A DNA stretch of 48,760 bases, from the NCBI GenBank assembly GCA_037141675.1, contig JBAXCC010000003.1, positions 1 to 48,760 on the forward strand, read 5' to 3'. The notes beneath the pieces are model-generated. The model searched no databases and was not told the DNA's origin. It saw only the letters and a program-made list of their open reading frames with translations. Source of the DNA: a bacterium (lineage in GTDB: Bacteria > Verrucomicrobiota > Kiritimatiellia > RFP12 > UBA1067). The position numbers and the translations under genes were made by a program. Below are positions 20,573 to 37,600 of the stretch, one piece after another. Positions within the stretch are counted from its first letter, which is position 1. Each line of letters starts with the position of its first letter.

Positions 20573-20602
20573 ATCATACCATGACCCTAATGCTGTAAAC
20601 AA
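20573..20602 (-). promoter_or_regulatory. Candidate sigma70 promoter for the lipoprotein/giant-protein cassette
   Basis: Minus strand reads TTGTTT-N18-TATGAT with an extended -10 (TGgTATGAT), in an AT-rich divergent region. Confidence 0.4.
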
Positions 20603-20627
20603 GGCAAAAAATGGGTTTTTTTTTGCA

Positions 20628-20656
20628 TTGACTAAAACGATTTAACCTGTGAAAAT
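20628..20656 (+). promoter_or_regulatory. Candidate sigma70 promoter for mutS
   Basis: TTGACT (20628-20633), a 17-nt spacer ending TGT, then GAAAAT (20651-20656), 8 nt before the ATG. Confidence 0.5.
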
Positions 20657-20664
20657 TCGCACGT

Positions 20665-23163
20665 ATGGCTTCTGAAGAACTCACACCTATGATGCGGCAA
20701 TATCGGCGAATCAAATCCGAACTTCCGGAGGGCGTTATCCTCCTTTTTCGTCTCGGCGACTTTTATGAGATGTTTTTTGAGGACGCACGTGCCGCTGCCC
20801 CTATTCTCGGTGTTGCGTTGACACAACGCGCTGGAACCCCCATGTGCGGTGTCCCCTACCATGCTATTGACGCCTATCTTGCCAAGCTTATCCGCGCAGG
20901 GAAAAAAGCGGCCATCTGCGACCAAATGGAAGACCCCGCACAAGCCAAAGGAATCGTCCGCCGGGAGGTCACCCGAGTGATCACGCCCGGCACCGTGACG
21001 GAGGACGAAATCCTTGATGCTTCCCGCAATAATTTTTTAGCATCCCTGTATGCCGTTAATACGGACATTGGTCTTGCGCTTCTCGACCTCTCAACCGGCG
21101 TATTTATGGCGGAAATCCTGCCTGACATCCCCTCGCTTATGGAGGCCTTGAAGCGCTACGCCCCGAGCGAGTGCCTGGTCGGCCAGACACAACGTTCCGA
21201 CCCCCGCCTTTCCGAAATCCTTATACCCTCCATTGCGGGCGCCGTAACGGACATTGATGACTGGACACTGGAGTATGATTGCGCTTATGACCGGCTCCTA
21301 CGCCATTTCAAGGTCCACTCTCTCCAGGGATACGGGTGCGAGAGCGTCCCAGCGCTCGTCTGTCCGGCTGGCGCGCTTATACAGTATGTCTGCGAGCAAC
21401 TTCACCATAACGCCGGACACATCCGATCCCTCCAGGTCCGCCATTCTGCCCATTTTCTGATGCTGGATGACAACACCTGCGGTAACCTCGATCTCGTCCC
21501 TCAACGGGGTAAAGCCAAGGAGCATACGCTTCTGGGTGTCTTGGATAACACCCTGACGCCCATGGGCGCACGCCTGCTCCGCTCCTGGCTCGTCCGTCCG
21601 CTACGCCAACAGGCTGAGATCCACGCCCGTTTGGATACGGTTGAGTTTTTTACACGTAACCGTATTGTTTTAAATAGCTTACGTGAAAAATTTGCGAGCG
21701 TCCGTGACTTAGAGCGTTTGATATCCAGAATTGACGCCAATCGATGTAATGGCCGTGATGTCAAGGCGTTAGAGGGTTCTCTCCTCCCGATGCCCGAAAT
21801 CCGAGACTGCATGGTGAAAACCGGAAATGCACTGCTTTCAGAGCTATCAAACCGTATCCACCCCCTTCCGGAACTCGTGGATTTGATCCACGCAGCCATC
21901 GATGATTCGCCTGCCATCGGACTCAAGGACGGCGGCATTATTCGGCAGGGCTATAATCGGGAATTGGACGAATTCCGGGCTTTAGCCTCGGAAGGACATG
22001 CCTGGCTCGCCAAGTACCAAGCCTCGGAACAAGACCGGACAGGTATTAAGACCCTCAAGGTGCGCCACAACAAGATTTTTGGCTTTTATATCGAAATTTC
22101 TAAGGGGCAAGCGGCCTCCGCACCCCCGGAATACGAACGCCGCCAGACGCTCGTCAATGCGGAGCGCTTTATCACCCCAGAACTTAAGACGTACGAGCAG
22201 AAGATCTTCGGTGCCCAGGATAAGGCCGTTGCCATGGAATTTGAGCTCTTCTGCGAAATTCGTGAGAAAATAGCCACCCATACCGCAGAAATCCAGGAAA
22301 CTGCCGATGCGCTGGCGCAACTCGATGTGCTTGCTTCGTTCGCAGACCGGGCGCTCGCGCTTGGATATGTACGGCCTGAAATGACAGTGGAGGACACCTT
22401 AATCATTAAGGAAGGACGCCACCCCGTCATTGAACAGCTTCCCGACGCCGAACAGTTCGTCCCGAATGATGCGCTGCTTGATTGTACGCAGAACCAGATC
22501 ATGCTGATCACCGGGCCCAACATGGCTGGCAAGTCCACCTATATCCGCCAAGTTGCGCTGATCGCGATCATGGCGCACCTGGGCTCCTTTGTCCCCGCCC
22601 GCGCTGCGAAGATCAGCCTCCTTGACCGTGTCTTTACACGCGTCGGCGCCGGCGATGACCTCGCACGAGGGCGCAGTACTTTTATGGTGGAGATGCAGGA
22701 GACGGCGAACATCCTGAACAACGCGACTGAAAAGAGCCTCATCGTGCTCGATGAAATCGGACGCGGGACCAGTACCTTCGATGGCATCAGCATCGCGTGG
22801 GCTGTCGCGGAATATCTGCACAATATTCCCCGCGTCAAGGCCAAGACGCTCTTTGCCACACATTATCATGAACTGACCGATCTGGCCATCACCATGAGCG
22901 GCGTCAAGAACTACACCGTCCAGGTACGCGAACATGGAGACAGTGTGGTCTTCCTGCGCCGCATCGCGCCAGGCACAGCTGACAAGAGTTATGGCATTCA
23001 CGTCGCACGCCTTGCCGGCATGCCAGATGAAGTAATCAATCGCTCAAATGAAATTTTAGCCAACCTCGAAGAGGGCGAACTCGAGGCTGGCCTGCCCAAG
23101 CTCGCCAAACCTCCGTCAAAAAAGAAAAACCAATCACCCACAAATCAATTAACCCTCTTTTAG
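20665..23163 (+). CDS. mutS: DNA mismatch repair protein MutS
   Basis: TPMMRQY, FRLGDFYEMF, ITGPNMAGKST, STFMVEM, DEIGRGTSTFDG, LFATHYHEL and SYGIHVARLAG. Confidence 0.99.
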   Translation: MASEELTPMMRQYRRIKSELPEGVILLFRLGDFYEMFFEDARAAAPILGVALTQRAGTPMCGVPYHAIDAYLAKLIRAGKKAAICDQMEDPAQAKGIVRREVTRVITPGTVTEDEILDASRNNFLASLYAVNTDIGLALLDLSTGVFMAEILPDIPSLMEALKRYAPSECLVGQTQRSDPRLSEILIPSIAGAVTDIDDWTLEYDCAYDRLLRHFKVHSLQGYGCESVPALVCPAGALIQYVCEQLHHNAGHIRSLQVRHSAHFLMLDDNTCGNLDLVPQRGKAKEHTLLGVLDNTLTPMGARLLRSWLVRPLRQQAEIHARLDTVEFFTRNRIVLNSLREKFASVRDLERLISRIDANRCNGRDVKALEGSLLPMPEIRDCMVKTGNALLSELSNRIHPLPELVDLIHAAIDDSPAIGLKDGGIIRQGYNRELDEFRALASEGHAWLAKYQASEQDRTGIKTLKVRHNKIFGFYIEISKGQAASAPPEYERRQTLVNAERFITPELKTYEQKIFGAQDKAVAMEFELFCEIREKIATHTAEIQETADALAQLDVLASFADRALALGYVRPEMTVEDTLIIKEGRHPVIEQLPDAEQFVPNDALLDCTQNQIMLITGPNMAGKSTYIRQVALIAIMAHLGSFVPARAAKISLLDRVFTRVGAGDDLARGRSTFMVEMQETANILNNATEKSLIVLDEIGRGTSTFDGISIAWAVAEYLHNIPRVKAKTLFATHYHELTDLAITMSGVKNYTVQVREHGDSVVFLRRIAPGTADKSYGIHVARLAGMPDEVINRSNEILANLEEGELEAGLPKLAKPPSKKKNQSPTNQLTLF

Positions 23164-23188
23164 TATGGGCAGGGCCCTGTCCCTGCCC
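23163..23188. repeat. Short REP-like hairpin
   Basis: GTAT-GGGCAGGG-CCCTGT-CCCTGCCC: a perfect 8-bp stem after a GTAG-like tetramer, with no U-tract. Confidence 0.5.
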
Positions 23189-23208
23189 CTTTAGAAAGGA
23201 AAACCACA

Positions 23209-24090
23209 ATGCCAGCAGCAATTCTCGACGGCAAGCAACTTGCCGCAACCATGAGAACAGATATCGCAAAGCAAGTAGCGGAACTCAAGGCCAAGAAGGG
23301 CATCACGCCCGGCCTTGGAGTGATCCTCATCGGAGTCGACCCCGCATCCACCTCCTACGTAACAGCCAAGGAAAAGGCCTGCGAGGAGGCCGGCATGCAC
23401 TCAGAGGATGTGCGCGTGCCCGCGACAACCACACAGGAGGAGGCCCTAGCCCTCGTCCAGAAGATGAATGCCGACCCGCGCATTCACGGCATTCTCGTGC
23501 AACTTCCGCTTCCGAAACATATCGATGAAGCCGCCGTCATTAACGCCATCGCACCGGAGAAGGATGTGGATGGCTTCACACCGATCAATGTAGGCCGCAT
23601 GATGATTGGCGAGACCTGCTTCCTGCCCTGCACGCCGCACGGTATCATCCAAATGCTGATCAGCGCAGGCATCGAGACCTCCGGCAAACATGCGGTCGTC
23701 ATCGGACGCAGCAACATCGTGGGCAAGCCCGTTGCGCATCTCTTAATGCGCAAGGCGAAAGGCGGTAACGCCACTGTGACTGTCTGCCATACCGGCACTA
23801 AAGACTTGTCCGCCTTCACCCGGCAAGCGGATATTCTGGTGGTTGCCGCAGGCCGTCCGAACACGGTCACGGGCGATATGATCAAGCCTGGCGCCGTCGT
23901 CATCGATGTCGGCGTAAACCGCATTCCAGATGCCACCAAGAAAAACGGCTTCCGTCTTGTCGGCGATGTCGACTTCGATTCCGCCGCACAGGTGGCCTCG
24001 CTGATTACACCTGTTCCGGGCGGCGTCGGTCCCATGACCATTACCATGCTGCTTTATAACACCCTCGAATCCGCCTCGCGCATGAAATAA
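23209..24090 (+). CDS. folD: Methylenetetrahydrofolate dehydrogenase/cyclohydrolase FolD
   Basis: [30 protein letters not shown] and [11 protein letters not shown]. Confidence 0.98.
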
Positions 24091-24094
24091 TAGT

Positions 24095-24493
24095 ATGAAA
24101 ACAATCAATACCCCCACCGCCCCCGCAGCCATCGGCCCTTATGCACAGGCCATTGAAGTCAACGGCCTAGTCTTTTGCTCAGGACAACTCCCGATTAACC
24201 CGGCGACCGGCACGATCGAAGTTGCCGGACCTGCGGAACAAACCATGCAAGTGCTCCTCAACCTCCGCGCTGTCCTTGATGCAGCGGGCTCAAGCTTGAG
24301 TAAAGTCGTGAAGACAACGGTCTTCCTCACCGACATGGGTGAGTTTCCCTTCATGAACAAAGTGTATGAGGAAATGTTTGCAGGTCACAAACCTGCGCGC
24401 GCAACCGTTGAAGTGTCTCGCCTCCCCAAGAACGCCCGCGTTGAAATCGAGGCCATCGCTGTTGCCGCCGAGCCGCATTATTGCAGCATATAG
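24095..24493 (+). CDS. ridA: RidA family reactive-intermediate deaminase
   Basis: APAAIGPYAQA, FCSGQ, VVKTTVFL, PARATV and VEIEAIA. Confidence 0.93.
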   Translation: MKTINTPTAPAAIGPYAQAIEVNGLVFCSGQLPINPATGTIEVAGPAEQTMQVLLNLRAVLDAAGSSLSKVVKTTVFLTDMGEFPFMNKVYEEMFAGHKPARATVEVSRLPKNARVEIEAIAVAAEPHYCSI

Positions 24494-24499
24494 CACTAA

Positions 24500-25072
24500 A
24501 TGAAACGCTTATTTGACATTGCACTCACGCTTCTCACTGCAGCGCTGTGGTTGCCATTATTGGCGCTGGTGGCCTTCGTAGTGTTTATCGTTATGGGGGC
24601 CCCCGTTCTCTTTGTGCAAGATCGTCCTGGCTTGAAAGGAAATATCTTTCGGCTATTCAAATTTCGCACCATGCGTTTGGGCGATGCCCCGGATGCCGAA
24701 CGTCTGACGCGCACCGGACGTTTCCTGCGCGCCACAAGCCTCGATGAACTGCCGGAACTTATAAATGTGCTGAAGGGTGACATGTCGCTTGTAGGTCCAC
24801 GCCCCCTGCTTGTACGCTATTTGTCGCGCTACACGACTGAGCAGATGCGCCGCCACGACGTACGTCCCGGTCTGACAGGATGGGCGCAAATCAATGGGCG
24901 CAACGCGATTACATGGGAGCAGAAATTCGCTTATGATGTCTGGTACGTTGACCATCGGACGTTGTGGCTTGATCTAAAAATTATGGGGCTCACCGTTTGG
25001 TGTGTCTTGACGCATCAAGGCATCAGTGCAGAGGGCGAAGCCACAATGGGTGAATTCAGGGGAGTGAAATGA
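24500..25072 (+). CDS. Undecaprenyl-phosphate phosphoglycosyl transferase (PglC/EpsL-like)
   Basis: MKRLFD, KFRTM, LRATSLDELP, GDMSLVGPRP, RPGLTGWAQING and DVWYVD: a small monotopic PGT. Confidence 0.93.
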   Translation: MKRLFDIALTLLTAALWLPLLALVAFVVFIVMGAPVLFVQDRPGLKGNIFRLFKFRTMRLGDAPDAERLTRTGRFLRATSLDELPELINVLKGDMSLVGPRPLLVRYLSRYTTEQMRRHDVRPGLTGWAQINGRNAITWEQKFAYDVWYVDHRTLWLDLKIMGLTVWCVLTHQGISAEGEATMGEFRGVK

Positions 25073-25689
25073 AAAAAATCATCATCATCGGCGCAAGCGG
25101 TTTCGGCAAGGAAATCGCATGGGTTATTGACCGCATGAATCATGCGGGTTGTGAATTGGGCCTGATCGGTTTTTGTGATGATGCCCCTAATAAGCAAAGG
25201 GGATCCTTTGCGGGGTTTCCTCTTCTTGGGAGATTGGAGGATGCCGCCGCGCAACTGCCTGGCTCGCGCTTCATCTGCGCCATCGGCAATAATCGCGCAC
25301 GTCAATCCGTTGTCGCGCGCGCTGAAGCTGCTGGGTTTCTCCCTCACTCCATTATTGATCCCTCTGCTACAATCGCGCCTGACACGACGATTGGCAAAGG
25401 TTCGTTCATCGGCATCAGTAGCATTGTCTCGACAGGCGCTGTCATTGGCTGTCATGTCATCGTGAATCACCAAGCCTGCGTTGGTCATGATGTGACCATT
25501 GCTGATTTCGCCCAAGTCTGTCCTGGCGCCCGCATCTCCGGTGGCTGTGACATCGGAGAAGGCGCACTCCTCGGAACAAATGCAGCAACGATTCCGCTCA
25601 TCAAAATGGGGGCGTGGTCCACGCTCGGCGCCGGTACGACCGCCTTGACCAGCATCCCCGACTATACAACCCTTGCCCGCTTGAAATAG
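25069..25689 (+). CDS. Sugar N-acetyltransferase (PglD/NeuD/EpsM-like)
   Basis: IIGASGFG Rossmann-like N-domain, AIGNN.R and hexapeptide repeats including VGHD. ATGA overlap with the upstream gene. Confidence 0.92.
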   Translation: MKKIIIIGASGFGKEIAWVIDRMNHAGCELGLIGFCDDAPNKQRGSFAGFPLLGRLEDAAAQLPGSRFICAIGNNRARQSVVARAEAAGFLPHSIIDPSATIAPDTTIGKGSFIGISSIVSTGAVIGCHVIVNHQACVGHDVTIADFAQVCPGARISGGCDIGEGALLGTNAATIPLIKMGAWSTLGAGTTALTSIPDYTTLARLK

Positions 25690-25700
25690 CTGCTATTGTT

Positions 25701-27257
25701 ATGCAGATATTCACTGATAACGCTTCAAAACCAAACAAGCTTTTTTATGGACTCCTCTTTGCTTGTTTCTTCCTCCTCTATGCGGTAACGGCTCAACGGG
25801 GTGTAAGCTGGCAGGACAGCGGTGAATTTCAGTATCGCGTACTCGTGCATGACTATTCCTGGATATCAGGCATCGCCATCGCCCATCCTGCCTATATTGT
25901 CGGTGCAGAACTTTTTTCCTGTCTTTTCCCCGCCTCTTGTCGCTTTTATGCGATCAATCTCTTTAGTGGCCTTGGCATGGCGTTCGCTTTGATGTTTCTC
26001 GCACGCCTCCTCACGCTGTTGCGGTTGAAAACTTCTACCGTCATCCTCACTGTGCTGACGCTCGGTTTGTCGCACATGGCGTGGTGGCTCTCCACTATCT
26101 CGGAGGTCTATACCTGGTCCCTCGCCTTTCTCATGGCGGAGCTTTTCTGCATGGCGAAGCTCTGCGGAGAGGGATCCGAAGAAAAGATGAAAGAGGAAGG
26201 AGAAAGGAGACAGGGTCACGGGGCGACAAGGATCTGGCTCCTTCTGGCGTTACTCAACGGCCTTCATGCCTCTTTTCACAATTTTGCCTTTCTCAACCTG
26301 CCAGTCTATGCCATTCTGTTTATTTGCCTCCAGTGGCGCAGAAACCTACTTCAGAGCATCGCCCTCCTGCTACTCACGGCCTGCGCGTGGCTCGTGGGTG
26401 CTTGCCTGCTCGTCGCCCTCTTCTACCTCGAATGGTCTGCGACGCAGTCCTTCACTGCAACACTTAAGAGTCTTCTGTTCAGCCACGAGTTTGAAGATGT
26501 TGTCACAGGGACGCGGGCAATCAACTGGTCCCTCGCAAAGATGAATCTCGCCTTGGCCAGCATCAGCTTCTTGAGTCCGGCATGGCTCTTTGTCTATTTT
26601 GCAGGACGCACCCGTAGCACTTATCCGTATTTCAAGCTTGCGCTTCTCAGCTTGACGATACTCCATTTTTTCTTCTGGATCCGCTATTTTGTACCTGATC
26701 AAGCGACGTTTCTCCTGCCGACTCTGGGGCTGCTCGCCATCTGGGTTGGGATTGGACTGGACAGTCTTACACTCAGACGGAAGCAGGTGGTGCTCCTTGG
26801 CACCGCCATACTCCTGTTCGCCATTGTAACCCCGTTGTTACTCCACCACATCCTGCTCGTCAAACAAGGCGGTGTCAAACGCATGCGTGAGCTGCCCTTC
26901 CGCGAAGAGAGTAGCTATTGGATATTCCCCTGGAAACACAACGAGCGATCTGCCGCTCGCTTTGTCGAGCATGTCTGTGCTATTCTAAAAGCTGGAGATG
27001 TTTTAATTGCGGATAATACGGCTGCAGGTCCTGTCATGGTAGCGCAAGCGGCTGGACTTTTAACATCCAATATTCGCATCATTACTTTTTTTACAGGCGA
27101 GACCGACGAGGAAATCATCCAACTGATCAGGACAAAAGAGCGCGTTTACATTGTGTCACCTATTGCCGGGTATGCATCAAGTGCCTTGCTAACAGGCCAG
27201 TTTACATTTGAAAAAGAGGATGCTCTTTATCGCGTCAGGAGTGCACGTCATGACTAA
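25701..27257 (+). CDS. DUF2723/TMEM260-like GT-C membrane glycosyltransferase
   Basis: WQDSGEF after TM1, AHPAY, STISEVY and about 11-13 hydrophobic helices. Start at ATG 25701, since the ORF-track start overlaps the previous gene. Confidence 0.75.
   Translation: MQIFTDNASKPNKLFYGLLFACFFLLYAVTAQRGVSWQDSGEFQYRVLVHDYSWISGIAIAHPAYIVGAELFSCLFPASCRFYAINLFSGLGMAFALMFLARLLTLLRLKTSTVILTVLTLGLSHMAWWLSTISEVYTWSLAFLMAELFCMAKLCGEGSEEKMKEEGERRQGHGATRIWLLLALLNGLHASFHNFAFLNLPVYAILFICLQWRRNLLQSIALLLLTACAWLVGACLLVALFYLEWSATQSFTATLKSLLFSHEFEDVVTGTRAINWSLAKMNLALASISFLSPAWLFVYFAGRTRSTYPYFKLALLSLTILHFFFWIRYFVPDQATFLLPTLGLLAIWVGIGLDSLTLRRKQVVLLGTAILLFAIVTPLLLHHILLVKQGGVKRMRELPFREESSYWIFPWKHNERSAARFVEHVCAILKAGDVLIADNTAAGPVMVAQAAGLLTSNIRIITFFTGETDEEIIQLIRTKERVYIVSPIAGYASSALLTGQFTFEKEDALYRVRSARHD
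26181..26232 (+). repeat. Purine-rich 7/8-nt tandem repeats inside the GT-C gene
   Basis: GAAAAGA TGAAAGA GGAAGGA GAAAGGA, then GACAGGGT CACGGGGC GACAAGGA. It encodes the charged loop EKMKEEGERRQGHGATR. Confidence 0.55.
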
Positions 27258-28413
27258 ACGTATTTTTTTATCGCCCCCATGGATGGGCGGGGACGAACGC
27301 AAGCTCGTTGAAGCAGCGTTCGATTCGAACTATGTTGCACCTTGCGGTCCTATGGTCGACCAGTTTGAAAAAGATTTCACTGCATTCACCCATCAGCCGA
27401 GCGCCTGCGCACTCTCCAGTTGCACAGCAGCACTTGATCTGCTTTGCCGCGAACTGGACGTCCAAAAGGGTGATACCCTCTTCTGTTCTGATCTAACATT
27501 TGTCGCGTCAATTGCGCCGGCCGTCCATCGAGGCGCGACACCCGTCTTTATTGACAGTGACGAACACACGTGGAATATGAATCCGGACCTTCTTGCAGAA
27601 GCACTGGCGGATGCTGAACGAGACAATCACTTACCCAAAGCGGTTATAGCGGTTGACCTCTACGGGCAATGCTGCGATTACAATCGCATCGAGTCGATCT
27701 GCGCCTCTTACGAAGTTCCGCTGATCATTGATTCCGCTGAGGCGCTTGGCGCGATGTATCAGCAACGCCAAGCTGGTGACGCCGGATGGGCTTCTGTCTA
27801 TTCATTCAACGGAAACAAAATCATCACCACGTCCGGTGGAGGCATGTTAACATCCCGCGATAGTGCCATTGTCGACCGTGCACGCAAACGTTCACAGCAA
27901 TCGCGTGAGAATCACATCTGGTACGAACATGGCGAACTCGGCTATAATTATCGTATGAGCAATATCGTTGCGGCGATCGGTGTCGGACAACTTCAAGTCT
28001 TGCCTGAAATCATTCGGCGCAAACATCAAATTTTCGGTTGGTATCGCGCAAACCTAAAAGACATTTCGGGCTTAGCTTTTATGCCCGAAGCGGCTTACGG
28101 CAAAGCCACACGCTGGTTAACGGTCATCACCCTCAACGCTGAACATGCGACACCTGACACGGCATCACCTTCACAGGAGGTTTTTAACGTGATGCAGGCA
28201 TTGGCAAACGAAAATATTGAGGCCCGCCCGATTTGGAAGCCCATGCATCTGCAACCCGTTTTTCGCTCTGCAAAAATTTACGGTGGCGCGGTCAGCAAGC
28301 GCTATTTCAACGCGGGACTATGTCTCCCATCTGGCGCTGGCTTGACTCAATCCGATGTCGACCGTATCTGTAGCATTGTGAAGCAGTCGCTTTTTAATAC
28401 ATCAAGCATTTGA
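27250..28413 (+). CDS. DegT/DnrJ/EryC1/StrS sugar aminotransferase (PglE/EpsN-like)
   Basis: RIFLSPP, VDLYG, DSAEALG, the PLP-lysine motif SFNGNKIITTSGGG, GYNYRMSN, RPIWKPMHLQP and GLCLPSG. ATG 27250 has an AGGAG RBS and overlaps the upstream stop. Confidence 0.94.
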   Translation: MTKRIFLSPPWMGGDERKLVEAAFDSNYVAPCGPMVDQFEKDFTAFTHQPSACALSSCTAALDLLCRELDVQKGDTLFCSDLTFVASIAPAVHRGATPVFIDSDEHTWNMNPDLLAEALADAERDNHLPKAVIAVDLYGQCCDYNRIESICASYEVPLIIDSAEALGAMYQQRQAGDAGWASVYSFNGNKIITTSGGGMLTSRDSAIVDRARKRSQQSRENHIWYEHGELGYNYRMSNIVAAIGVGQLQVLPEIIRRKHQIFGWYRANLKDISGLAFMPEAAYGKATRWLTVITLNAEHATPDTASPSQEVFNVMQALANENIEARPIWKPMHLQPVFRSAKIYGGAVSKRYFNAGLCLPSGAGLTQSDVDRICSIVKQSLFNTSSI

Positions 28414-28425
28414 CAAGGAATACCG

Positions 28426-30111
28426 ATGAGCACGCAGAAACAAATACTTGATTGGATGCGATTTGCAATGCTCGCCATTATAGCTCTCTTTGCCTATTTT
28501 AATTATTCATGGATGATAGGTTACACCATGATGATGTTTAACGAACCCCTGGAGGATATGTCGCATGGATGGGTCATCCCGTTTGTCAGCCTCTTTGCAA
28601 TCTGGAAGCTGCGGGCTGATTTTTCAAAAGCCATGGCCACCGGGAGACCTTCCTGGCAAGGGTTTTTTTGGTCCGTTCTGTTTCTTGTCATCGCTTGGTT
28701 TGGCGCACGGGGTCAACAATCTCGCATTGAGCAACTGTCTCTTATTGGGCTTATTTGGTCTATACCATATGCCCTTTGGGGTCGGAATATAGCGCAACTC
28801 TTGTTGTTCCCGGCTGGGTTCCTCCTCTTTACAATCCCTATTTCTTCCTTTCTTGATTTCTTCACTATGCACCTGCGCATATTTTCTTCTGGCATGGCCA
28901 CTGGCATTCTTAATGGATTCGGCATGGTCATTGAGCGTTCGGGAACAGCACTTTTCTCTCGCGTACCCGGAGGTGAGTTCAATGTGGATGTTGCTGACCC
29001 GTGTAGCGGTATTCGTTCGCTCTTCGCCATGATGGCACTTACAGCCGCCTACGCTCATTTCACGTTAAAGACGCGCCTTCAAAAATGGTTTCTTTTTGCA
29101 TGTTCGTTGCCCATCGCGATGGTTGGCAACATGTTCCGAATCTTTTCCATTTGCATTGTTGCACGTTTTTTCGGACAGGAAATCGCGACTGGCTTCTATC
29201 ACGACTATTCAGGCTTCGTCATTTTTATCATCGGTGTATTATTGATGTTCGAAACTGGCCGATGGGTCGTTAAAGTTGACACATGGGCCCAAAATGCTTT
29301 TCCACGTCTCCGCTCATTCTTTTCCCTTGCTCCTGAAGAGCATGCATCTGAGAAGCAACCGAACCGAATATACTTCATTCAGGCAGGGCTTATCTTTTCG
29401 CTGGCACTCTTTGTTTTTATCAGCAACCGAATGGTTGGGGCCCCTCTCTATGATCCAACACGTTATATTGTTGCGGATCTTCCCAAACAGATCAATTCCC
29501 TCATCGGCGATCAGCCCTGGTTCTGCCACAACGAACAATGCAATAATCATTCTGAAGAACGAATTCTTATAGAACAAAAATGCCAACAAGGCGACGGATT
29601 TACGTGCCCAACCTGTGGTGGTAAAATGAAAAAAGTCTCGATGGGCGAATTGCAAGACCTTCCAACAGATACAGAAATTCTTAAACGTATCTATCGTTCT
29701 TCGGATGGCCTCACTTATTCTGTAAGCGTTGTCATTGCTGGACAAAGCCGTGGGAGCATTCATCGGGCGGAACTTTGCCTGCCGGCACAAGGATTCGTAA
29801 TGCTCAGTGCGAAAAAAGAAAAGCTGAACATCAAGACCGGTCACCCCCGGGAAGCGCGGATCATCCAGGCTCAACGCTCGTCTTCCGATGATCGTTTTTC
29901 GCTCGTCTACTGGTTCGTGAGCAGGAATCATGAGTGCGCTTCGCATGCTGAGCGCATTTTACTCGATATCTGGGACCGGTCCATCCATAATCGTATCAAT
30001 CGTTGGGCCATGATTGCCGTAAATGTATCAACCCCGCTGGATACTCCTGAATCGAGAATATCGTTCGAAGCCTTTGTAGATGATCTTTACCCGAAAATAC
30101 TTCTCAAATAA
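28426..30111 (+). CDS. Exosortase (EpsH family) fused to an EpsI-like periplasmic domain
   Basis: SHGWVIP and the catalytic triad motifs VADPCSGIRS (Cys193), NMFRI and FYHD, across about 8 TM helices. C-terminal IHRAELCLPAQG and VYWF are EpsI-like motifs. Confidence 0.9.
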   Translation: MSTQKQILDWMRFAMLAIIALFAYFNYSWMIGYTMMMFNEPLEDMSHGWVIPFVSLFAIWKLRADFSKAMATGRPSWQGFFWSVLFLVIAWFGARGQQSRIEQLSLIGLIWSIPYALWGRNIAQLLLFPAGFLLFTIPISSFLDFFTMHLRIFSSGMATGILNGFGMVIERSGTALFSRVPGGEFNVDVADPCSGIRSLFAMMALTAAYAHFTLKTRLQKWFLFACSLPIAMVGNMFRIFSICIVARFFGQEIATGFYHDYSGFVIFIIGVLLMFETGRWVVKVDTWAQNAFPRLRSFFSLAPEEHASEKQPNRIYFIQAGLIFSLALFVFISNRMVGAPLYDPTRYIVADLPKQINSLIGDQPWFCHNEQCNNHSEERILIEQKCQQGDGFTCPTCGGKMKKVSMGELQDLPTDTEILKRIYRSSDGLTYSVSVVIAGQSRGSIHRAELCLPAQGFVMLSAKKEKLNIKTGHPREARIIQAQRSSSDDRFSLVYWFVSRNHECASHAERILLDIWDRSIHNRINRWAMIAVNVSTPLDTPESRISFEAFVDDLYPKILLK

Positions 30112-30122
30112 ATAGGCGAAAT

Positions 30123-31184
30123 ATGGAAACAAAAATTTTAGAGTGGCTACGCGCATTGACGTTGTTAGTGCTAATCCTTCTCGGATGCCTCCATTTCAAG
30201 AGTGTCTTGTTAAGCGCCATGGCGATTGACTTCACGAAGATATCGGCCACACAACTGATATCATTCGAATGGATCGTTCCCTTTATTTGTTTCTATGCTC
30301 TCTTTACCCGAAGAGAGGAAATTTCGCGGGCCGCCTCTCTTCCATCTTGGACCGGGTTTGCGATGACGTGCTTTTTTCTTGTTGCGCTCTCCGCGTCTGC
30401 ACATACAAACAAGCCACCGCTCCAGCTTCTCTCCATTGCAGGATTGATCATGGCTGTTACCCATGCATTCTGGGGAAAAGAAGCGGCAAAATTATTATGG
30501 TTTCCCATGGGATTTTTAGTCTTCGCCGTCCCTGTTTTCTTTTACCTCGATTGTCTCAAAATACTTTCTGAATCCCTTTCCGATATGATCATCCGCTTCG
30601 GAACATCCGTTGAACAAACCGGCTTTAAATACTTCCGAGATCTGCTGGGCGTTAAGGGGTTCACCTTAAAGCCGGCAGACCCCGCCAGTGGCATACGTTC
30701 TCTCTTTGCCATGTTAGCGATTGCAGTAACTCTTGCACATTTTACAGTTAAGACTCGCCAGCAACGTTTCGCGATTTTCTGTTACGCAGTCCCTATTACT
30801 ATCGTTGCTAATATGATCCGCTCGTTCATCATCTGCCTCATCGCTCTCAAACTCGACCGGGAATGGGCGGTAACGTTTTATACTCATTATTCTCAATATG
30901 TCACGTTCCTCATAGCTTTGATCTTTTTTTTCCAATTGGCGAACTTCATTGTCTACCTCAGCGAAAGATATAAGAAGCCAACATCAAAAGAGTGGTTACA
31001 AAGCATTCATGAACAAGAAACACTGGTCGATGTCCCAAAACAAAGTATTGTTAAATCAGCCGCCATTATCTGTTTTATTTTTATATTCGCAATGACCGCT
31101 TTCTTCTTTACGAACACCCATAAACTAAGCGCTAAGTGCGACAAAAAGGCAAGCCCTGCAGCATCATCCACTGGTGGCAAATAA
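30123..31184 (+). CDS. Exosortase paralog lacking the catalytic cysteine (probable pseudo-enzyme)
   Basis: Collinear with the upstream exosortase (PSW.GF, LS..GLI, WG...A.LL.FP.GFL, SGIRSLFAM.A...AHFT.KTR.Q). It reads PADPASGIRS (GCC at 30684-30686) and FYTHYS. The ORF is intact and has no EpsI domain. Confidence 0.85.
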   Translation: METKILEWLRALTLLVLILLGCLHFKSVLLSAMAIDFTKISATQLISFEWIVPFICFYALFTRREEISRAASLPSWTGFAMTCFFLVALSASAHTNKPPLQLLSIAGLIMAVTHAFWGKEAAKLLWFPMGFLVFAVPVFFYLDCLKILSESLSDMIIRFGTSVEQTGFKYFRDLLGVKGFTLKPADPASGIRSLFAMLAIAVTLAHFTVKTRQQRFAIFCYAVPITIVANMIRSFIICLIALKLDREWAVTFYTHYSQYVTFLIALIFFFQLANFIVYLSERYKKPTSKEWLQSIHEQETLVDVPKQSIVKSAAIICFIFIFAMTAFFFTNTHKLSAKCDKKASPAASSTGGK

Positions 31185-31200
31185 GAGAAATCCCCTTCTC

Positions 31201-31881
31201 TTATTGGACGAATGACGTTTGGCCTGTTGCGTCCAAGGAGGGCGCACAGGGATAGAAGAGCCAGTCCTGCTCCACGGTGCAAATCACTGCCGAGCTGTGT
31301 AAAAATCCAACCCAGTTTTCTGCTGTGTACGTGCGGGCTTTTATACCTGCAAGTAACGCCGCAACAAAAATATCGTGCGACACGAGCACGTTGAGTTGCT
31401 GGGTTGTCATGCGTTGCATCCAGGCGACCATCTGGGGTGTCGCAACAGCAACATCATGCGAGTATAGCGCAGACCCTGTCCGCAAGTAATCGAGCATGTA
31501 TTGAATATAGCCGCACCGCATCATCTCGCCGGGCAGCTTCTCCGCTTCATCATAATAAAAATTCTTCAGCCCTAAAATCGGCTCATCCGCCACCTCTGCG
31601 TCCGGGCATCCCATGCCCTCTGCAAGACAGGACGCGGTCATCTGACACCGTACCATCGGACTCGACAGGAAACGGACATCATACGGCCCTGCCAGCAATC
31701 GGCCTGCCTCTCGGGCCATCTCTTCGCCTCGCGGTGTCAACGCCAGGGAGTGCCCAAAGGTCGTATCACCTGGCGTAATCTTAGGACGCTCCGAGTGCCG
31801 TATCAGCAACGATACTTTGCATCCCTCTGCCAAAAATTGTTTTACCCTCTTAAAATCAATCGTCTCTGTAAAAACCTTCAT
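31201..31881 (-). CDS. Histidine phosphatase superfamily protein
   Basis: LIRHSER, LTPRGEEMA, SSPMVRCQMTA and VSHD. ATG 31881 has an AAGGA RBS and lies just after the tilS stop. Confidence 0.88.
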   Translation of the reverse strand: MKVFTETIDFKRVKQFLAEGCKVSLLIRHSERPKITPGDTTFGHSLALTPRGEEMAREAGRLLAGPYDVRFLSSPMVRCQMTASCLAEGMGCPDAEVADEPILGLKNFYYDEAEKLPGEMMRCGYIQYMLDYLRTGSALYSHDVAVATPQMVAWMQRMTTQQLNVLVSHDIFVAALLAGIKARTYTAENWVGFLHSSAVICTVEQDWLFYPCAPSLDATGQTSFVQ

Positions 31882-31883
31882 TC

Positions 31884-33293
31884 TTATTTCCTTACGACTT
31901 CGATCCTCAAACTCGCTGACTGCTTGCCATTTACAGCAAAACGGTTCGCAATACGGTATCCCGGAATCCAGACCACCTCGTCGCCGCACACCAAGAGTGG
32001 CACAGCATCACGAATGTGCTCAGGTACTTTCGCATCCACAAAAACATCCTGCACCTTTTTCGTCCCCTTCATTCCGTAAGGCTGGATGCGATCCCCAGGC
32101 TGGCGACTCCTCGCCATGAGAGGCTTCCCAGCCAGCGCATCCGGATCGATCGTGCACACTGCAGGATAGCCCCCTGCCCCATGCGCGACACTCTCAATCC
32201 CTTTTGCAACCTTGCAGATGATGGTCACATCCCCCCATTGCGTCTGCCCCCGAGGATTCACCTTTTGGGCCAGCCTCTGAATGGGCGTTGTGTGGATGAT
32301 CTGTAACGCACCAGCCCGAAGAATCGCATACACGTCTTCACCAAGCTGCTCCTTGTCGCCCTCTTCCAAGGCGAGTAGCCGCTCAACCGTCTCAAAGCCG
32401 CTTGGCAGAGGAGCCTCCGCATGCCAGAGCCACAGCCGCATTACACGCCGCTGCAATGCCACGGGAGAGGCCTTGAGTTGTTTCATATCCAATACGTCAG
32501 TGCGCTTTTCGCGCGAGATAATATCCTGCGCCATCTCCTCTAAGAGCGAATCTTCCTCTTGTAAAATCTCTGCGGTCCTACACAAGTTCATCCGCAGCGC
32601 GTTACCGAAATTGTGCTCTAAAAAGGGCAAGATCTCAACCCGCATCTTGTTACGTGGAATCGTCACGTCCCTGTTGGTCGTGTCTTCACGCCAGGTGATT
32701 TTCTTCTGTTTGAGCCAGCCACGGACGGCCTCGCCCGAGACATGTAACAAGGGACGCATAAAACCGCGCGACCGATCTTTCAAAGGTGCCAAACCCGAGG
32801 CCCCCGCCCCGCGCATCAAACGCAGCAAGACAGTCTCCGCCACATCATCCGCCTGATGTCCTGTGGCAATCGCATCGAGTTTGAGCCGCGCGCGGCACTC
32901 TGCGAAGAATGCTTGCCGCATCTCCCGCGCAGCCATCTCAACAGAGATTGCCTCGGTTTGATGTGCCGTGACTTCACGGCGTTCCGCCACACATGACGCA
33001 CCTGTTTTTTTCGCAAGCGCTTTAACCCATTTCGCATCCTGTGCAGACGTGCTGCGCAGCCCGTGATCCAGATGGAGGACGACGAGTTTAATTTTATTCT
33101 TTTTACAGATCGGCGCCAGCAGGGTTAACAATGCGACCGAATCCGCGCCGCCTGACACCGCCACACCCAGACGCTTCACACCCTGCAACAGTCCCTTGCG
33201 TTCGATCACCGCTTGCACAGTGTCCGCAAGGCCGTCTGCATCATCACAATAGAGGGGTGCTTGATTTCGCATTTTCTGCAACTTGACGTTCAC
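31884..33293 (-). CDS. tilS: tRNA(Ile)-lysidine synthetase TilS
   Basis: AVSGGADS PP-loop, HLDHGLR, E.AARE.R, TGHQADDVAET, RPLL and C-terminal RQPGDR..KKVQDVFVDAKVP. The GTG start is uncertain. Confidence 0.96.
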   Translation of the reverse strand: MNVKLQKMRNQAPLYCDDADGLADTVQAVIERKGLLQGVKRLGVAVSGGADSVALLTLLAPICKKNKIKLVVLHLDHGLRSTSAQDAKWVKALAKKTGASCVAERREVTAHQTEAISVEMAAREMRQAFFAECRARLKLDAIATGHQADDVAETVLLRLMRGAGASGLAPLKDRSRGFMRPLLHVSGEAVRGWLKQKKITWREDTTNRDVTIPRNKMRVEILPFLEHNFGNALRMNLCRTAEILQEEDSLLEEMAQDIISREKRTDVLDMKQLKASPVALQRRVMRLWLWHAEAPLPSGFETVERLLALEEGDKEQLGEDVYAILRAGALQIIHTTPIQRLAQKVNPRGQTQWGDVTIICKVAKGIESVAHGAGGYPAVCTIDPDALAGKPLMARSRQPGDRIQPYGMKGTKKVQDVFVDAKVPEHIRDAVPLLVCGDEVVWIPGYRIANRFAVNGKQSASLRIEVVRK

Positions 33294-33382: not shown

Positions 33383-34675
33383 CTATCCGGCCATCAGTCC
33401 GGCAACCGCTGCGCCGATCACAGGCGATTCGTCCACCTTGATGAGGTCGTAGGAGATTCCTCGGGGCTTCAGAAGCTTCGCCAGCTCTTGCTGTACGCGA
33501 TTCTGGAAGTCAGCAGTCAGCGTCTTATAGTAGGTCGAACCATCCACATTCACACAGACCGGACGCTGCGGATCTTTGCCTTCGCCAGTCTTGAGAATCG
33601 CGGAAGCCAGATTAATTGCCGTCAGCACAGCAGCCCGCGCATAGACAGGCGTGCACAACTGTTTGACGGTCTCACGGTCAGCAGCAGTAAATGCATCGAC
33701 CATAAAGGGATTATTCGCCTGCGGCTTGTCACCGCAGAACGCATCCAGATCCATATTTGAAAGCTTGCTCCATGCTTGGATCGTCGCAACGGCCGAGGCT
33801 GAGAAGAGGCTCTTCTTCGCCGCCACTTTGAGCACCTCAAAGCCGATACGGCCAAGATAAGCGCCTGATATCATCTTCTCAAAGGCATAATGTCCACAAT
33901 CATTGGTCTGAGCATCCATAGCCTGATCAAAGGCGGATTGCGTCACGCGGCTAAACCCGCCGGATTCAACATTGATGACCTGCGACTCCGTCTGATTCAA
34001 ATCGTTACGCTTGGTGATGCGTGCATTGCGTTCAACATACGCCGTATTTGTCCCTGTCCCCAAGATGAACCCTACATACGCACTGTACGCTTTTGCCACC
34101 CCCGCGCTCTTGCCCGCAAGCAGCGTCGCAACCGTGTCATTCAAAATGATGGCCTTGCGCGTGAAGCCACGTTTAGCCAATTGGTTCTGCAAACCAGAGC
34201 CGATCAGCGTGCCAACGACAGCGGGAACCTCGATCTGCTTTGTCCAGCAAATGAGCTTCGCATCGCACGTCGGCGTGATCTCAGCCGGATAGGAGAAGCA
34301 GAAGCCGATCGTCTCGGACGTAGCGATGACCGGCATGAGAAAATCTGCGAAGGCATCGTAAAATGCTTCAGCCGAGAGTTCCCCTGTCGTTCCTGGCATC
34401 GGACGCTTTAAGAAGGAACCGATAGCTGCCTTGCCGCTTGCTTCAATCGTGACAACAGCCGAGCGCAAATTCGTCCCGCCTGCATCCAGCACAACAACCG
34501 GCGTGTTCGTCTTCACAGACTTATCAATCGTGATGAACGAAGGAATCATCATCAGGCTTGAGCGCTTGCCCGCCAACCCGGCATCCATCTCCTCTATAAA
34601 GGTTGCGAGCAATGCCGCACGATCAATACCCTCAACATCCAGGCCGTTCTCTTTCAAAAAAGCACTTGCATCCAT
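33383..34675 (-). CDS. Eukaryote-type hexokinase (Hexokinase_1/2 family)
   Basis: LDAGGTNLR, GFCFSYP, WTK, NDTVATL, ILGTGTN, INVESGGF, FEKMISGAYLG and DGS. ATG 34675 has an AAGGGG RBS. Confidence 0.93.
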   Translation of the reverse strand: MDASAFLKENGLDVEGIDRAALLATFIEEMDAGLAGKRSSLMMIPSFITIDKSVKTNTPVVVLDAGGTNLRSAVVTIEASGKAAIGSFLKRPMPGTTGELSAEAFYDAFADFLMPVIATSETIGFCFSYPAEITPTCDAKLICWTKQIEVPAVVGTLIGSGLQNQLAKRGFTRKAIILNDTVATLLAGKSAGVAKAYSAYVGFILGTGTNTAYVERNARITKRNDLNQTESQVINVESGGFSRVTQSAFDQAMDAQTNDCGHYAFEKMISGAYLGRIGFEVLKVAAKKSLFSASAVATIQAWSKLSNMDLDAFCGDKPQANNPFMVDAFTAADRETVKQLCTPVYARAAVLTAINLASAILKTGEGKDPQRPVCVNVDGSTYYKTLTADFQNRVQQELAKLLKPRGISYDLIKVDESPVIGAAVAGLMAG

Positions 34676-34691
34676 GATATTCCCCTTGTCA

Positions 34692-37600
34692 TTAAAATCC
34701 AAAGTTGCCTCCCACGCGTGTGCGCCCCGGTTGCACCAAGTCACGGAAGGGCGCTGGTAAATTCTGCTGTTGCCACATGGGCTGGAAGCGGCCTTCTGTG
34801 CGCAATTGATTGCGCGTGGGTTCACCGCCTAATTCAACGGCACGACGCCAGGCATCATACCCTTCGGTGCTCTTGCCTTGTAGGATGTTCAGCCACCCCA
34901 TTTCAACCCAGCCCCTCGGGTCACGGGGTACAAGCGTCACATAACGACGGAAGGCGTTCATCGCCAAGTCCATCCGGCGCACGCTGTTCAGCAGTGTACC
35001 CACCTGGAAGAAGCACTCTGCGGGGGCCTTCTCGTTATTGAGCACCATGCCGCTCAACTGGGACAACTCGTTTTGAAGATTTAACCGAGCATAAATCGTC
35101 AGCAACTCCATGATGTCGTTGACGTCTGCGCCTGTACCTAATTTCGCTTGAAGTTCCGTACGCCGCTTATCACAGGTCTCAATGTCATTAATCTGATCGA
35201 GAAAACCCTTGGCGCTTGTATTGTATTCGTCAATCTTCAGATAGGCGGCAATCAGTTGACGCGCATCCGCATACCGGCGTTGATTCATGCAGAGTTCCGC
35301 CAAGCGGAAATTACCCTCGGGGCTTTCCGGGCACAGCTCAACAGACTGACGGAACGCATATTCAGCCTCCGCAATCATCCCTCGGTACAGATAGAGTCCT
35401 GCAATCGCCGAACGCATCTTGGAGAAGGATTTTTTTGCGTCGGCATTGCGACGGAATTCTTCACGCGCTGTAAACTCCTTGGTCAGCTTATCCCAGTACG
35501 CCTTGTCCTTGGCGACAATATCCTGCCACAGCTTGGGATTCTGCTGCGGCGCCGGCAGCACATCCTTCTCAATTTTCATAATGACGCCTGCAGGACTCAG
35601 ATAGGGATACATCCATTGGATAACGTAGCTCTCTTCAACGTAGAATGCATGGTTGGTCTTGTTCCAATCAAAGATATACTTAGCTAGAATACCATTGATT
35701 TCCATGACCGCCAAGGCACCCGTCACTTGCACGCGGCCATTTTCAATGACAATGTCTCCGCGATTCGGCCTCGCCCCGCTCTGCACTTCTGACACAAACT
35801 GCTGGAACGCCCGCGCACTGTCATCTGGCGTCGGGATGCGAATCGGCGCTTTTGGAAAATCATTTTTACGATCCAATGCATTCCAGCCCCACTTGAAGAC
35901 ACTCCGCTGCCACGGGCTGAACTTTTCGAGCGTCTTGGGATCTTCCGGATTGGGACGGCTATAGTCGTAATGATCGCGGATATAGTTCATGTAGGTGCCA
36001 TCCGCCAAGGCATTCTGCGTAATGATGTAGACATCCGAACGATCAAAATCACGCCCCTTTGATTCCGGCAGGTGCGGACTCTGAAAGCGGTGCTGCGGTT
36101 TCACACGGCTTTCACAGAAGATCATGTAGGTCGGCACAAAACGCCCCGGATCTGTCCCTCCGTATAAGACCGCATCCTTCTCCATATCCGGATATCCGCC
36201 ACCCGGGCAAAACATGCGATAACCGAACTGATAGCCGAAATCATGCGTCGTGAGCGAACAGAGGCTCCAGTTCTTCGCATACGGAATATAAGGCAAGGCA
36301 AGCAGCGCTAGACAGGCCACATAGACCAGCGCCTTGGGGATCGTTCGCCAAACCGAGAGCACATACGCGAAGGTCATCGCAATACCATACCCAATCAGCA
36401 TGGCATAAAAGCCATGAGCCGGCGCAAAGAACTTAATCGTGATTTCCTGTTCCTGACGATCGAGCTTAGGATTGATAATCATGATCAGCCCGAGACTGGA
36501 CGCAAGGAAGGCCGCCCATACGAAAATTCCCCAGGAGCGTCCCGGCCATTCCAAGTAGAGCCAAAAGATAATCAACAAACAGAAGAGCGTTGAGAGTCCG
36601 ACACCCCAAATCATGAGCTGGGGCGAGAAGGCGAACGGCAGTTTCAACACCGCCGTACGTAAGACGGAAATCGCGATCATGGAAGCCGGTATCGCCGCCA
36701 GCCACACCAGCAAAATCCAGACGTAACTTTTGGCCTCACGCGTGAGCCGCTTGACCATCCACCAGGTCGAGACCCCCAGCGTCACCAGGCCGAAGAGACA
36801 GAGCGGCAGCGAATACTGCCTCAGCAAGCCCCGAATAAAGACCCATATCTGGATATGGATAATGGACCCACACGGATCCGCCATTTGAAGCTTCTCATAT
36901 TGGCCACGCGTAATCGCATGGAGGAAACCTTCTTTCGTTGAGGCAAAACCCCAGTTCATGGGCGGATTGGTCGATGCGGCGATCGGCATATACATATACA
37001 ACGCACAACCGCACAGAAAGAGTCCTGTATAAATGAACGCATAGCGCGGACTGACCCAGCCCGCCTTGAATCCGGCACCCAGTAAGATCGCGCCCGCCAC
37101 AGCTAACGCAATGATTCGAAATGCCATCGAGCTATCGGCACGCAACCAGGCAAAGAGCGAAAACACCGCGGCCAAACTGAACAGCACGGCAACTGTCAAA
37201 TCCCAGAAGGTCGTCAGAGATGTCATCATCAACTGAAAGGGCTGCACTTTGACTTTTGCTGCAAGCAGTTCAGCGCGCTGCTGGAAAAACTTATCCAAGC
37301 CCAATGCCAATGTGCCCGCCACCAGCGCCAAGGCCATCACCGCTACGGTCTGATGATTCGTCATACTCAGCCCGAACGTCAGCAAGGAGGCATAAAGAAA
37401 TCCCTTTCGCCGAGGCTGGACCATCCACGCAAAGAAAAAGCAGGCGATCAGAATAAACGAGAAGGCGTTCAACACGCGCATTTCCGACACGCTTGCCCAG
37501 AGCCAAACACCGCGATTGAAGCCGAACAACAAGGAGGTGCTCGTACCCACGGCCAAGGCAATCCAGTGCAGCAACCGGTCATCGACCTTCTTAGACCACG

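Follow-up and report, generated by a model that had tools for sequence, protein, structure and literature searches.

Introduction

Exosortase genes, according to passages of the 2006 report on the PEP-CTERM/EpsH systems, nearly always lie among exopolysaccharide genes and are correlated with PF02397 sugar transferases, and EpsH–EpsI fusions are described there (Haft et al., PMC1569441). The attachment target of exosortases has been an open question since then and was, in the relevant passages of a 2020 study, still an "unidentified compound"; the same passages describe type IX cargo amide-linked to an amino sugar, and the authors speculate that a similar compound serves exosortases (Veith et al. 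2020, PMC7468200). The only characterised member of the DUF2723 family is human TMEM260, a protein O-mannosyltransferase, as stated in sections of PMC10214176. Here we describe six co-oriented genes (positions 24500–31184) in a 48,760-nucleotide stretch of a Kiritimatiellia genome (contig JBAXCC010000003.1; hereafter the window, meaning the whole stretch analysed), in which an exosortase–EpsI fusion and a Cys-less exosortase paralogue follow three bacillosamine-type (Pgl) genes and a membrane glycosyltransferase (GT-C) of divergent DUF2723 type.

The row may represent a reduced, lineage-specific form of a type of envelope-glycan locus that is associated with exosortases and widespread in Kiritimatiellia; this reading, together with the mechanism proposed below, we regard as evenly balanced between right and wrong. 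Within it the coupling of exosortase and GT-C is facultative. A preliminary description of the same DNA had called the row an undescribed glycosylation and sorting system; its observations were confirmed and its interpretation is partly supported, but the term "undescribed system" is too strong, as the placing of exosortases amid polysaccharide genes was described in 2006 and an amino-sugar acceptor has been speculated on in print (passages of PMC1569441 and PMC7468200). What appears undescribed in the literature searched is the combination of exosortase, bacillosamine genes and GT-C, and the dead paralogue, within a kind of system that is already known. Full-text searches returned no paper joining exosortase and bacillosamine, only unrelated work for exosortase with Kiritimatiell, and only the TMEM260 study for DUF2723; among the titles and opening lines of abstracts returned, no title concerned an inactive exosortase.

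The locus is of interest as a compact, conserved cluster in which the genes around an exosortase are those of a single defined amino sugar and of a periplasmic GT-C, i.e. a small, testable set of parts, and it would give bacterial DUF2723 proteins their first functional context. All genomes in which the full cluster was seen are metagenome assemblies, and experiments would therefore need heterologous reconstruction.

Comparison with described systems

The likeness to the PEP-CTERM/EpsH systems comprises an eight-helix exosortase with Cys, Arg and His, an EpsI fusion, a setting among lipid-linked glycan genes including a PF02397 transferase, and canonical substrates in a genome of the same genus. 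By contrast, the window's enzyme falls below all named subtype cut-offs, its EpsI domain carries a four-Cys insert, a Cys-less paralogue is encoded next door, and substrates are few, the three cluster-bearing genomes that were searched having between 1 and 6 each. The XrtA set consists of chain-length, tyrosine-kinase and FemAB genes, whereas the exosortase here is accompanied by bacillosamine genes, a GT-C of DUF2723 type and a WecA-like enzyme; among the XrtA-set families of NCBIfam, TIGR03013 alone matched, and that below threshold.

The row resembles the Campylobacter/Neisseria pgl pathway in that the nearest solved relatives of three products are pgl enzymes, and in that a PglF homologue is present in the genome and lies within the cluster in relatives. 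It differs in that no PglB/STT3 was found in the window's assembly (PglL was not searched by name) and in that a GT-C of another family occupies the place expected for the oligosaccharyltransferase. The best fold match is to ArnT, an amino-sugar transferase of the Arn lipid A aminoarabinose pathway. The two proteins are comparable in size, both have a small soluble domain C-terminal to the membrane domain, and both are encoded alongside a DegT-family aminotransferase for an amino sugar; unlike there, no ArnT-family sequence match is seen, and the loading enzyme is a phosphoglycosyl transferase rather than an ArnC-type GT2 enzyme. Phosphoglycosyl transferases form a pyrophosphate link, ArnC-type GT2 enzymes a monophosphate link.

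TMEM260 and the GT-C have in common a Pfam family assignment above cut-off, the GT-C fold and, in the first outward loop, an acidic residue, but the match is weak (30.6 bits), TPR repeats are missing, and the donor is likely an amino sugar on undecaprenyl (pyro)phosphate, not dolichyl-phosphate mannose. With regard to the type IX system, passages of PMC7468200 describe a C-terminal sorting transpeptidase, PorU, that joins cargo to an amino sugar made by DegT-type and hexapeptide-type enzymes (the Wbp/Vim sugar), which is a parallel to the present locus; however, the sorting enzyme there is of another family and the linking sugar has a free aminoacyl amine added by VimA, whereas here the 4-amine would be capped by PglD, and no gene like FemAB or VimA was seen. 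By analogy only, the iRhom-type dead paralogues of intramembrane proteases resemble the Cys-less exosortase in being retained after loss of the nucleophile and encoded beside an active enzyme.

Conservation of the gene grouping

The surroundings of the GT-C gene were compared in two surveys, which overlap and have several contigs in common and so are not independent. The first took an evenly drawn sample of the phylum (401 genomes) and 20 kb around the GT-C; the second took one genome per species and gave 80 GT-C loci, 37 of them at 38% identity or above and 43 below; individual loci are given L numbers. The GT-C was found in 18 of the 401 genomes, including 6 of 17 in the window's family. Among the 37 closer loci of the second survey, 24 have Pgl genes and 17 an exosortase, each time together with Pgl genes. 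When only the 18 well-flanked loci are counted (at least 1.5 kb upstream and at least 6 kb downstream), both Pgl genes and exosortase are present in 12; the cluster is thus conserved in relatives, a question that the preliminary description had left to a neighbourhood survey.

The usual order is PglC-(730-residue membrane protein without a Pfam match)-PglD-GTC-PglE-PglF-XrtEpsI-GT4, where the terminal gene encodes a WecA-like Glycos_transf_4 protein with a CoA_binding_3 domain. The commoner form thereby includes PglF and a WecA-like transferase, both of which lie on other contigs in the window's assembly (G000; 4.26 Mb in 568 contigs, numbered with C). In the clade of the window (L038, L039, L040 and L068), PglF and the WecA-like gene have gone from the row, and the dead exosortase stands at the usual WecA-like place. 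Larger versions of the cluster add GT87- and PMT_2-type GT-C enzymes, a GT1 enzyme and a DUF218 protein. A DUF2961 protein of 723 residues, absent from the window, is encoded between PglE and the exosortase in the same-genus locus L021 (5315–7486, minus strand), and a relative follows PglE in L067 (3942–5969).

The exosortase stays inside or beside the Pgl/GT-C genes over a range of 35–80% GT-C identity, including forms in which it is immediately upstream of the GT-C, and in the rearranged loci L064, L071, L074 and L079 it still adjoins the GT-C. Since the adjacency has been kept through rearrangements, exosortase and GT-C may, where both are present, act on the same product. A tree of 76 GT-C proteins (FastTree) splits into two halves with good support (95). 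Of the 39 rows in the Kiritimatiellia-type half, 19 are exosortase-linked, including the deepest branches, and 5 more have Pgl genes on contigs that end early; the other half, mostly Planctomycetota, has 37 rows, of which one (L079) is exosortase-linked.

The steadiest pair is not, however, that of exosortase and GT-C. Twenty exosortase loci without a nearby GT-C were picked from the top of the exosortase list (16 fused and 4 split), and in 11 of these a WecA-like GT4 gene adjoins the exosortase, compared with 12 of 19 exosortase-bearing GT-C loci; the pairing of exosortase and WecA-like enzyme being the steadiest, the Pgl/GT-C genes look like an add-on. On the side of the GT-C, the 43 more distant loci contain a PglF-like dehydratase (18 loci), a different DegT aminotransferase (16) and a shorter WecA-like enzyme (10), and some Kiritimatiellia loci likewise have the GT-C without an exosortase. 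It would appear from these neighbourhoods that the constant partner of the GT-C family is amino-sugar synthesis with a lipid-loading enzyme, the exosortase link being a Kiritimatiellia feature.

Among the Planctomycetota loci, Pfam scans of proteins from L087, L089 and L100 showed a UbiA gene upstream of the GT-C relative on the opposite strand in the first two, and in all three a conserved gene of 346–372 residues after the GT-C, of no clear family and with a weak TPR match in one of the three. The row continues with a PglF-like gene (tblastn), DegT and WecA-like genes (scanned in L089) and GT1 genes downstream (L087); the layout of open reading frames in L091 is similar to that in L087, L089 and L100.

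The DUF2723-type glycosyltransferase

The GT-C protein matches PF11028 (TMEM260-like) over residues 91–242 of the long open reading frame, a weak match that is nonetheless above the gathering score (cut-off 24.2 bits); the same family is precomputed for many, but not all, of the 120 relatives listed. An AlphaFold2 model made with 29 relatives (predicted local distance difference test, 88.9; predicted template modelling score, 0.91) was compared with the PDB by use of Foldseek. The best match is to ArnT (5f15; E 1e-6, template modelling score 0.58), with further matches to STT3/oligosaccharyltransferase, ALG12/9, PMT, AftA, DPY19 and PglB, the last being distant (E 5e-4 to 9e-4). All 25 matches with E ≤0.001, and nearly all of the 45 listed, are GT-C enzymes, so that the predicted GT-C fold, already proposed in the preliminary description, holds for the modelled protein. 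The C terminus (about residues 400–518) is modelled as a small alpha/beta domain. Pfam gave no TPR match in the 518 residues, and neither Pfam nor NCBIfam gave a sequence-level match to the ArnT families.

The QDSGE motif that had been noted in this protein lies right after the first helix, and W37, Q38, D39, S40 and G41 are invariant across the 29 aligned relatives. Sections of PMC10214176 place D52 of TMEM260 in the first luminal loop, where a structural alignment pointed to it as the counterpart of the catalytic D77 in PMT1, and report a test of D52A; we infer that D39 is the equivalent residue.

The DUF2723+TPR protein encoded elsewhere in the window (Table 1) carries the QDSGE motif as well, is kept in synteny in L038–L040, and has a TPR architecture nearer to TMEM260 than the cluster GT-C. 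A third DUF2723 protein of the assembly is at C1:40988-41431; the second and third are of about 1098 residues.

Genes assigned to bacillosamine synthesis and lipid loading

The closest solved relatives of the PglC-like protein are N,N'-diacetylbacillosaminyl-1-phosphate transferases (8g1n, 190 bits; 8e37, 188 bits), which align over residues 1–188, i.e. full length, and the protein has the small, single-domain Bac_transf form of the PglC type. The PglD-like protein belongs to its family by TIGR03570 (179 bits against a cut-off of 160.8) and PglD_N (57 bits); its best solved relative is a Neisseria pilin glycosylation protein (4m98, 103 bits), with Campylobacter jejuni PglD (3bss) at 60 bits. 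The PglE-like protein aligns over its full length with 1o61 (309 bits) and 4ztc (306 bits) and is below the cut-off for the LegC family (TIGR04181, 319.5 bits against 420).

The preliminary description had looked to the rest of the genome for PglF and a flippase, of which the first was found: a Polysacc_synt_2 protein of 620 residues on contig C16, amid unrelated neighbours, is 61% identical to the in-cluster PglF of L022. The WecA-like gene of the assembly is on the 2.2-kb contig C501. With the solved relatives of three gene products and PglF on C16, the bacillosamine pathway assignment of the Pgl genes, and with it the gene identities given beforehand, is well supported by homology.

The exosortase pair and candidate substrates

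The exosortase–EpsI protein is a clear family member (PF09721 cut-off, 25.7 bits; TIGR02602, 140.9 against 105.55; TIGR04178 signature, 72.8 against 23). Its motif is DPCSGIRS, and C193, R238 and H259, which from the exosortase/archaeosortase literature we take to be the catalytic residues, are invariant in 18 orthologues. The EpsI domain is above the Pfam cut-off (PF11984, 48.4 against 26.1) and below that of NCBIfam (TIGR02914, 38.3 against 42.8). None of the named subtypes applies, the scores being 158 against 400 for XrtD, 146 against 425 for XrtW, 142 against 208 for XrtA and 116 against 313 for XrtV. Within the EpsI domain, C367, C372, C394 and C397 (residues 367–397) form a zinc-ribbon-like insert and are invariant in all 18 orthologues.

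As the preliminary description had it, this apparently live enzyme is followed by one without the cysteine, DPASGIRS replacing DPCSGIRS. The second protein is above the PF09721 cut-off and below that of TIGR02602 (77.3 against 105.55). The four orthologues in surveyed loci have Leu, Ser, Ser and Ser at the Cys position, some also lacking the Arg or His, and none of the 19 full-length relatives from the database has the Cys. Intact reading frames in 5 genomes, at 39–68% identity, argue for a retained non-catalytic paralogue rather than a decaying gene; the product is accordingly classed as an exosortase homologue predicted to be non-catalytic. It is confined to the genus-level clade of the window, and, as far as searches show, the retention of such a dead paralogue has not been reported before in the exosortase family. 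A complex prediction for the two proteins scored 0.00 against a mark of 0.32, which is informative neither way on binding. A separate tandem pair of exosortase–EpsI genes is present in L074 (4267–5922 and 6060–7763), where the upstream copy is Cys-less, TEPHIW replacing ADPCSG; a dead copy beside a live one has thus arisen at least twice.

Substrates were sought by a six-frame search with PF07589, which gave 6 matches in the sister genome of the same genus (G197; 6.1 Mb), 2 in G227, 1 in G083, 21 in G023 and 93 in G080, counts that show the search to be sensitive. The proteins of the sister genome are small (177–267 residues) and have signal peptides, a composition high in Thr, Ser and Gly, and a classical C-terminal signal of the VPEPTSMALLALG...RRK type. 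Given how few PEP-CTERM proteins the sister and other cluster-bearing genomes encode, the exosortase is most simply taken, on sequence grounds, as an ordinary PEP-CTERM enzyme with few clients.

In the window's own assembly, a regular expression for a hydrophobic stretch with a basic end gave 67 matches with no common motif, a comparison of all C-terminal 40-residue ends with one another revealed no family that combines a transmembrane helix with a basic tail, and a direct PEP expression gave 27 matches, none convincing. Two giant secreted proteins of the window (4438–9195, minus strand, 1585 residues; 9264–19961, minus strand, 3565 residues), with He_PIG, MAM, PKD, LamG and TSP3 domains, were ruled out as substrates, their C termini having no hydrophobic tail. 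Because PEP-CTERM proteins are common in Planctomycetota, those encoded close to GT-C relatives at 6 loci of that phylum may be there by chance and were set aside.

Two adjacent paralogues on C272 (87–611 and 716–1786, plus strand) have a C-terminal transmembrane helix with RRR or TRR after it; a signal peptide is present in the longer one, and neither has a PEP or other conserved motif. Ten open reading frames on ten contigs of the assembly (e.g. C22:4007-7285 and C96:3227-6574) share an SGLLGPV-type motif some 10 residues before the C terminus; these proteins have 156–1213 residues, mostly about 900–1200, and no transmembrane helix.

Proposed mechanism and alternative explanations

If the row is an exosortase-associated envelope-glycan locus, the family assignments suggest that PglF (from C16), PglE and PglD would make uridine diphosphate-di-N-acetylbacillosamine or a close 2,4-diamino-2,4,6-trideoxyhexose, and that the PglC-like enzyme would load the sugar onto undecaprenyl phosphate at the cytoplasmic face. 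After flipping, the GT-C, to judge from its fold, motif and gene order, may take bacillosamine on its lipid carrier, or a short glycan that begins with bacillosamine, and transfer it at the periplasmic face, via the invariant Asp of the WQDSGE loop, to an envelope acceptor, for which protein, glycolipid and polysaccharide are the candidate classes. The conserved linkage is consistent with cleavage of a small PEP-CTERM set by the exosortase–EpsI enzyme, with the glycan of the Pgl/GT-C module and the WecA-like partner being the material that PEP-CTERM proteins associate with or join, and with the bacillosamine/GT-C module being an optional add-on, not needed for sorting, to a core of exosortase and WecA-like enzyme. 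In the genus-level clade the Cys-less exosortase would have replaced the WecA-like gene beside the exosortase, and would most likely be a binding or regulatory partner.

Several observations weigh against such a locus. In the first survey, Pgl genes and exosortase were within 20 kb in 4 of the 17 other GT-C-positive genomes, and in the second 6 of the 18 well-flanked Kiritimatiellia-type loci had neither. Exosortase relatives are present in 194 of the 401 genomes and 17 of 17 in the window's family, as against 18 with the GT-C, so that sorting is independent of the GT-C; for the GT-C in turn, an exosortase is nearby in 2 of the 43 loci below 38% identity, which are mostly Planctomycetota. With these differing distributions neither needs the other. 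The proposal of the preliminary description that the GT-C glycosylates exported proteins or builds the exosortase anchor, coupled to sorting, is unsupported. The six-frame PF07589 search gave 0 matches in the window's assembly, and tblastn found no homologues there of the six PEP-CTERM proteins of the sister genome; this assembly is smaller and in many contigs, which leaves the absence unproven, as the genes may be unassembled rather than lost. No PF01943 match, i.e. no flippase of that family, was found in the genome. The product of PglC is pyrophosphate-linked, while ArnT-like and PMT-like GT-C enzymes use monophosphate-linked donors, and the assignment of the donor is therefore uncertain.

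A bolder version of the same reading would make the DUF2723-type GT-C a new bacterial class of transferase for pyrophosphate-linked bacillosamine glycans, which either glycosylates PEP-CTERM proteins or builds the envelope acceptor that receives the cleaved substrates of the exosortase, with the Cys-less exosortase as a non-cleaving holder of the sorting signal. We consider this rather doubtful; if true, it would name the long-missing acceptor chemistry of exosortases and provide the first function for a bacterial DUF2723 protein.

An alternative that we consider unlikely, and the main reading of the preliminary description, is that the GT-C is a new type of oligosaccharyltransferase, moving bacillosamine or a bacillosamine glycan from undecaprenyl pyrophosphate to exported proteins, especially PEP-CTERM proteins, in which case glycosylation and sorting would be one pathway. 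The fold matches to STT3, PglB, PMT and DPY19, all protein glycosyltransferases, and the activity of TMEM260 as a protein O-mannosyltransferase with its catalytic Asp in the first luminal loop (sections of PMC10214176) favour this, but the best fold match, ArnT, is a lipid A transferase, and the TPR domain of both TMEM260 and the window's other DUF2723 protein is missing from the GT-C. It is also favoured by the Pgl set, which is like the core of the pgl loci for protein glycosylation in Campylobacter and Neisseria, by the lack of an STT3 (PF02516) match in the whole of the window's assembly, and by the small, Thr-, Ser- and Gly-rich PEP-CTERM proteins of the sister genome. The window's row also has no chain-extending transferase, so the lipid might carry a single sugar residue on pyrophosphate; among GT-C fold enzymes, it is the oligosaccharyltransferases that accept donors of this kind. 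Against this, the exosortase-free relatives in Planctomycetota stand beside ordinary Leloir glycosyltransferases, the extra GT87 and PMT_2 enzymes of the larger Kiritimatiellia clusters look like the building of periplasmic glycans, no acceptor protein was identified, and searches of the window's assembly turned up no PEP-CTERM protein.

It is more unlikely still that the Pgl genes and GT-C serve a glycolipid or polysaccharide, e.g. ArnT-style decoration of lipopolysaccharide or lipid A, an O-antigen or a capsule, with no mechanistic tie to the exosortase and a clustering that is general. The differing distributions of GT-C and exosortase, the top fold match to ArnT, and the Planctomycetota-type GT-C loci, which lie amid glycan genes where an exosortase is rare, are in accord with this, as are Wzy_C-family matches in the window's genome, which are confined to contigs C314 and C72, off the window's contig. 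Moreover, the row is continuous with the housekeeping genes MutS, FolD and RidA, so that tight spacing alone is weak evidence for shared function. Set against these points are the persistence of the exosortase in or beside the Pgl/GT-C genes over the whole range of GT-C identity noted above and through several rearrangements, and the finding of no Wzx, Wzy or export genes in the clusters examined, of whose open reading frames a part (30) was scanned with Pfam.

The gene row and other features of the window

Features are collected in Table 1. The six genes were taken from the open reading frame listing and profile searches, which bear out the coordinates, common orientation and spacing of at most 12 nucleotides given in the preliminary description. 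For the GT-C and the aminotransferase, the ATG codons used as starts, at 25701 within an open reading frame of 25614–27257 and at 27250 within one of 27208–28413, are those used by relatives.

Table 1. Location and supporting matches of the six-gene row and neighbouring features
Feature	Position	Strand	Supporting match
PglC-like small monotopic phosphoglycosyl transferase, 190 residues	24500..25072	+	PF02397 Bac_transf, 204 bits
NeuD/PglD-family sugar N-acetyltransferase, 206 residues	25069..25689	+	PglD_N + Hexapep; TIGR03570, 179 bits
Predicted GT-C fold membrane glycosyltransferase, divergent DUF2723/TMEM260-like, with C-terminal alpha/beta domain, 518 residues	25701..27257	+	PF11028, 30.6 bits
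PglE-like pyridoxal phosphate-dependent sugar aminotransferase, 387 residues	27250..28413	+	DegT, 284 bits
Exosortase–EpsI fusion, catalytic residues intact, 561 residues	28426..30111	+	PF09721, 160 bits; PF11984 DUF3485/EpsI, 48 bits
Cys-less exosortase paralogue, membrane domain only, 353 residues	30123..31184	+	PF09721, 91 bits
MutS, FolD and RidA, co-oriented, directly upstream	20665..24493	+	Pfam + NCBIfam
Second DUF2723 GT-C, with TPR repeats, nearby and outside the row, 1097 residues	34692..37985	-	PF11028, 87.7 bits, + TPR families

From the coordinates, the junctions of the row are, in order, a 4-nucleotide overlap, an 11-nucleotide gap, an 8-nucleotide overlap, a 12-nucleotide gap and an 11-nucleotide gap. 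The row had been described as an operon of six; it is tight, but it extends upstream to MutS, FolD and RidA, which have gaps of 45, 4 and 6 nucleotides and are kept in synteny in L038, L040 and L068. As the tight, co-oriented row begins at these genes, the transcription unit may exceed six genes, and MutS, FolD and RidA possibly belong to it. Scans of 20000–32500 gave 15 promoter candidates against 10.5 ± 3.1 in shuffled sequences and 19 terminator candidates against 13.7 ± 3.6, both within about 1.5 standard deviations.

Pfam scans of the window covered 25 open reading frames, i.e. part of those of at least 130 residues. Among these 25, and in agreement with what had been noted at the outset, there was no STT3/PglB, Wzy_C, Wzx, PglF, flippase, chain-extending transferase or further glycosyltransferase other than the DUF2723+TPR protein.

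Two further proteins are encoded on the minus strand of the window. One, of 480 residues (33383–34825), between TilS and the DUF2723-TPR gene, matches the eukaryote-type families Hexokinase_1 (83 bits) and Hexokinase_2 (143 bits). The other, of 1206 residues (44227–47847), combines a hydrazine synthase alpha middle domain with an FGE-sulfatase domain, and has a C-terminal end in common with eight other open reading frames of the assembly.

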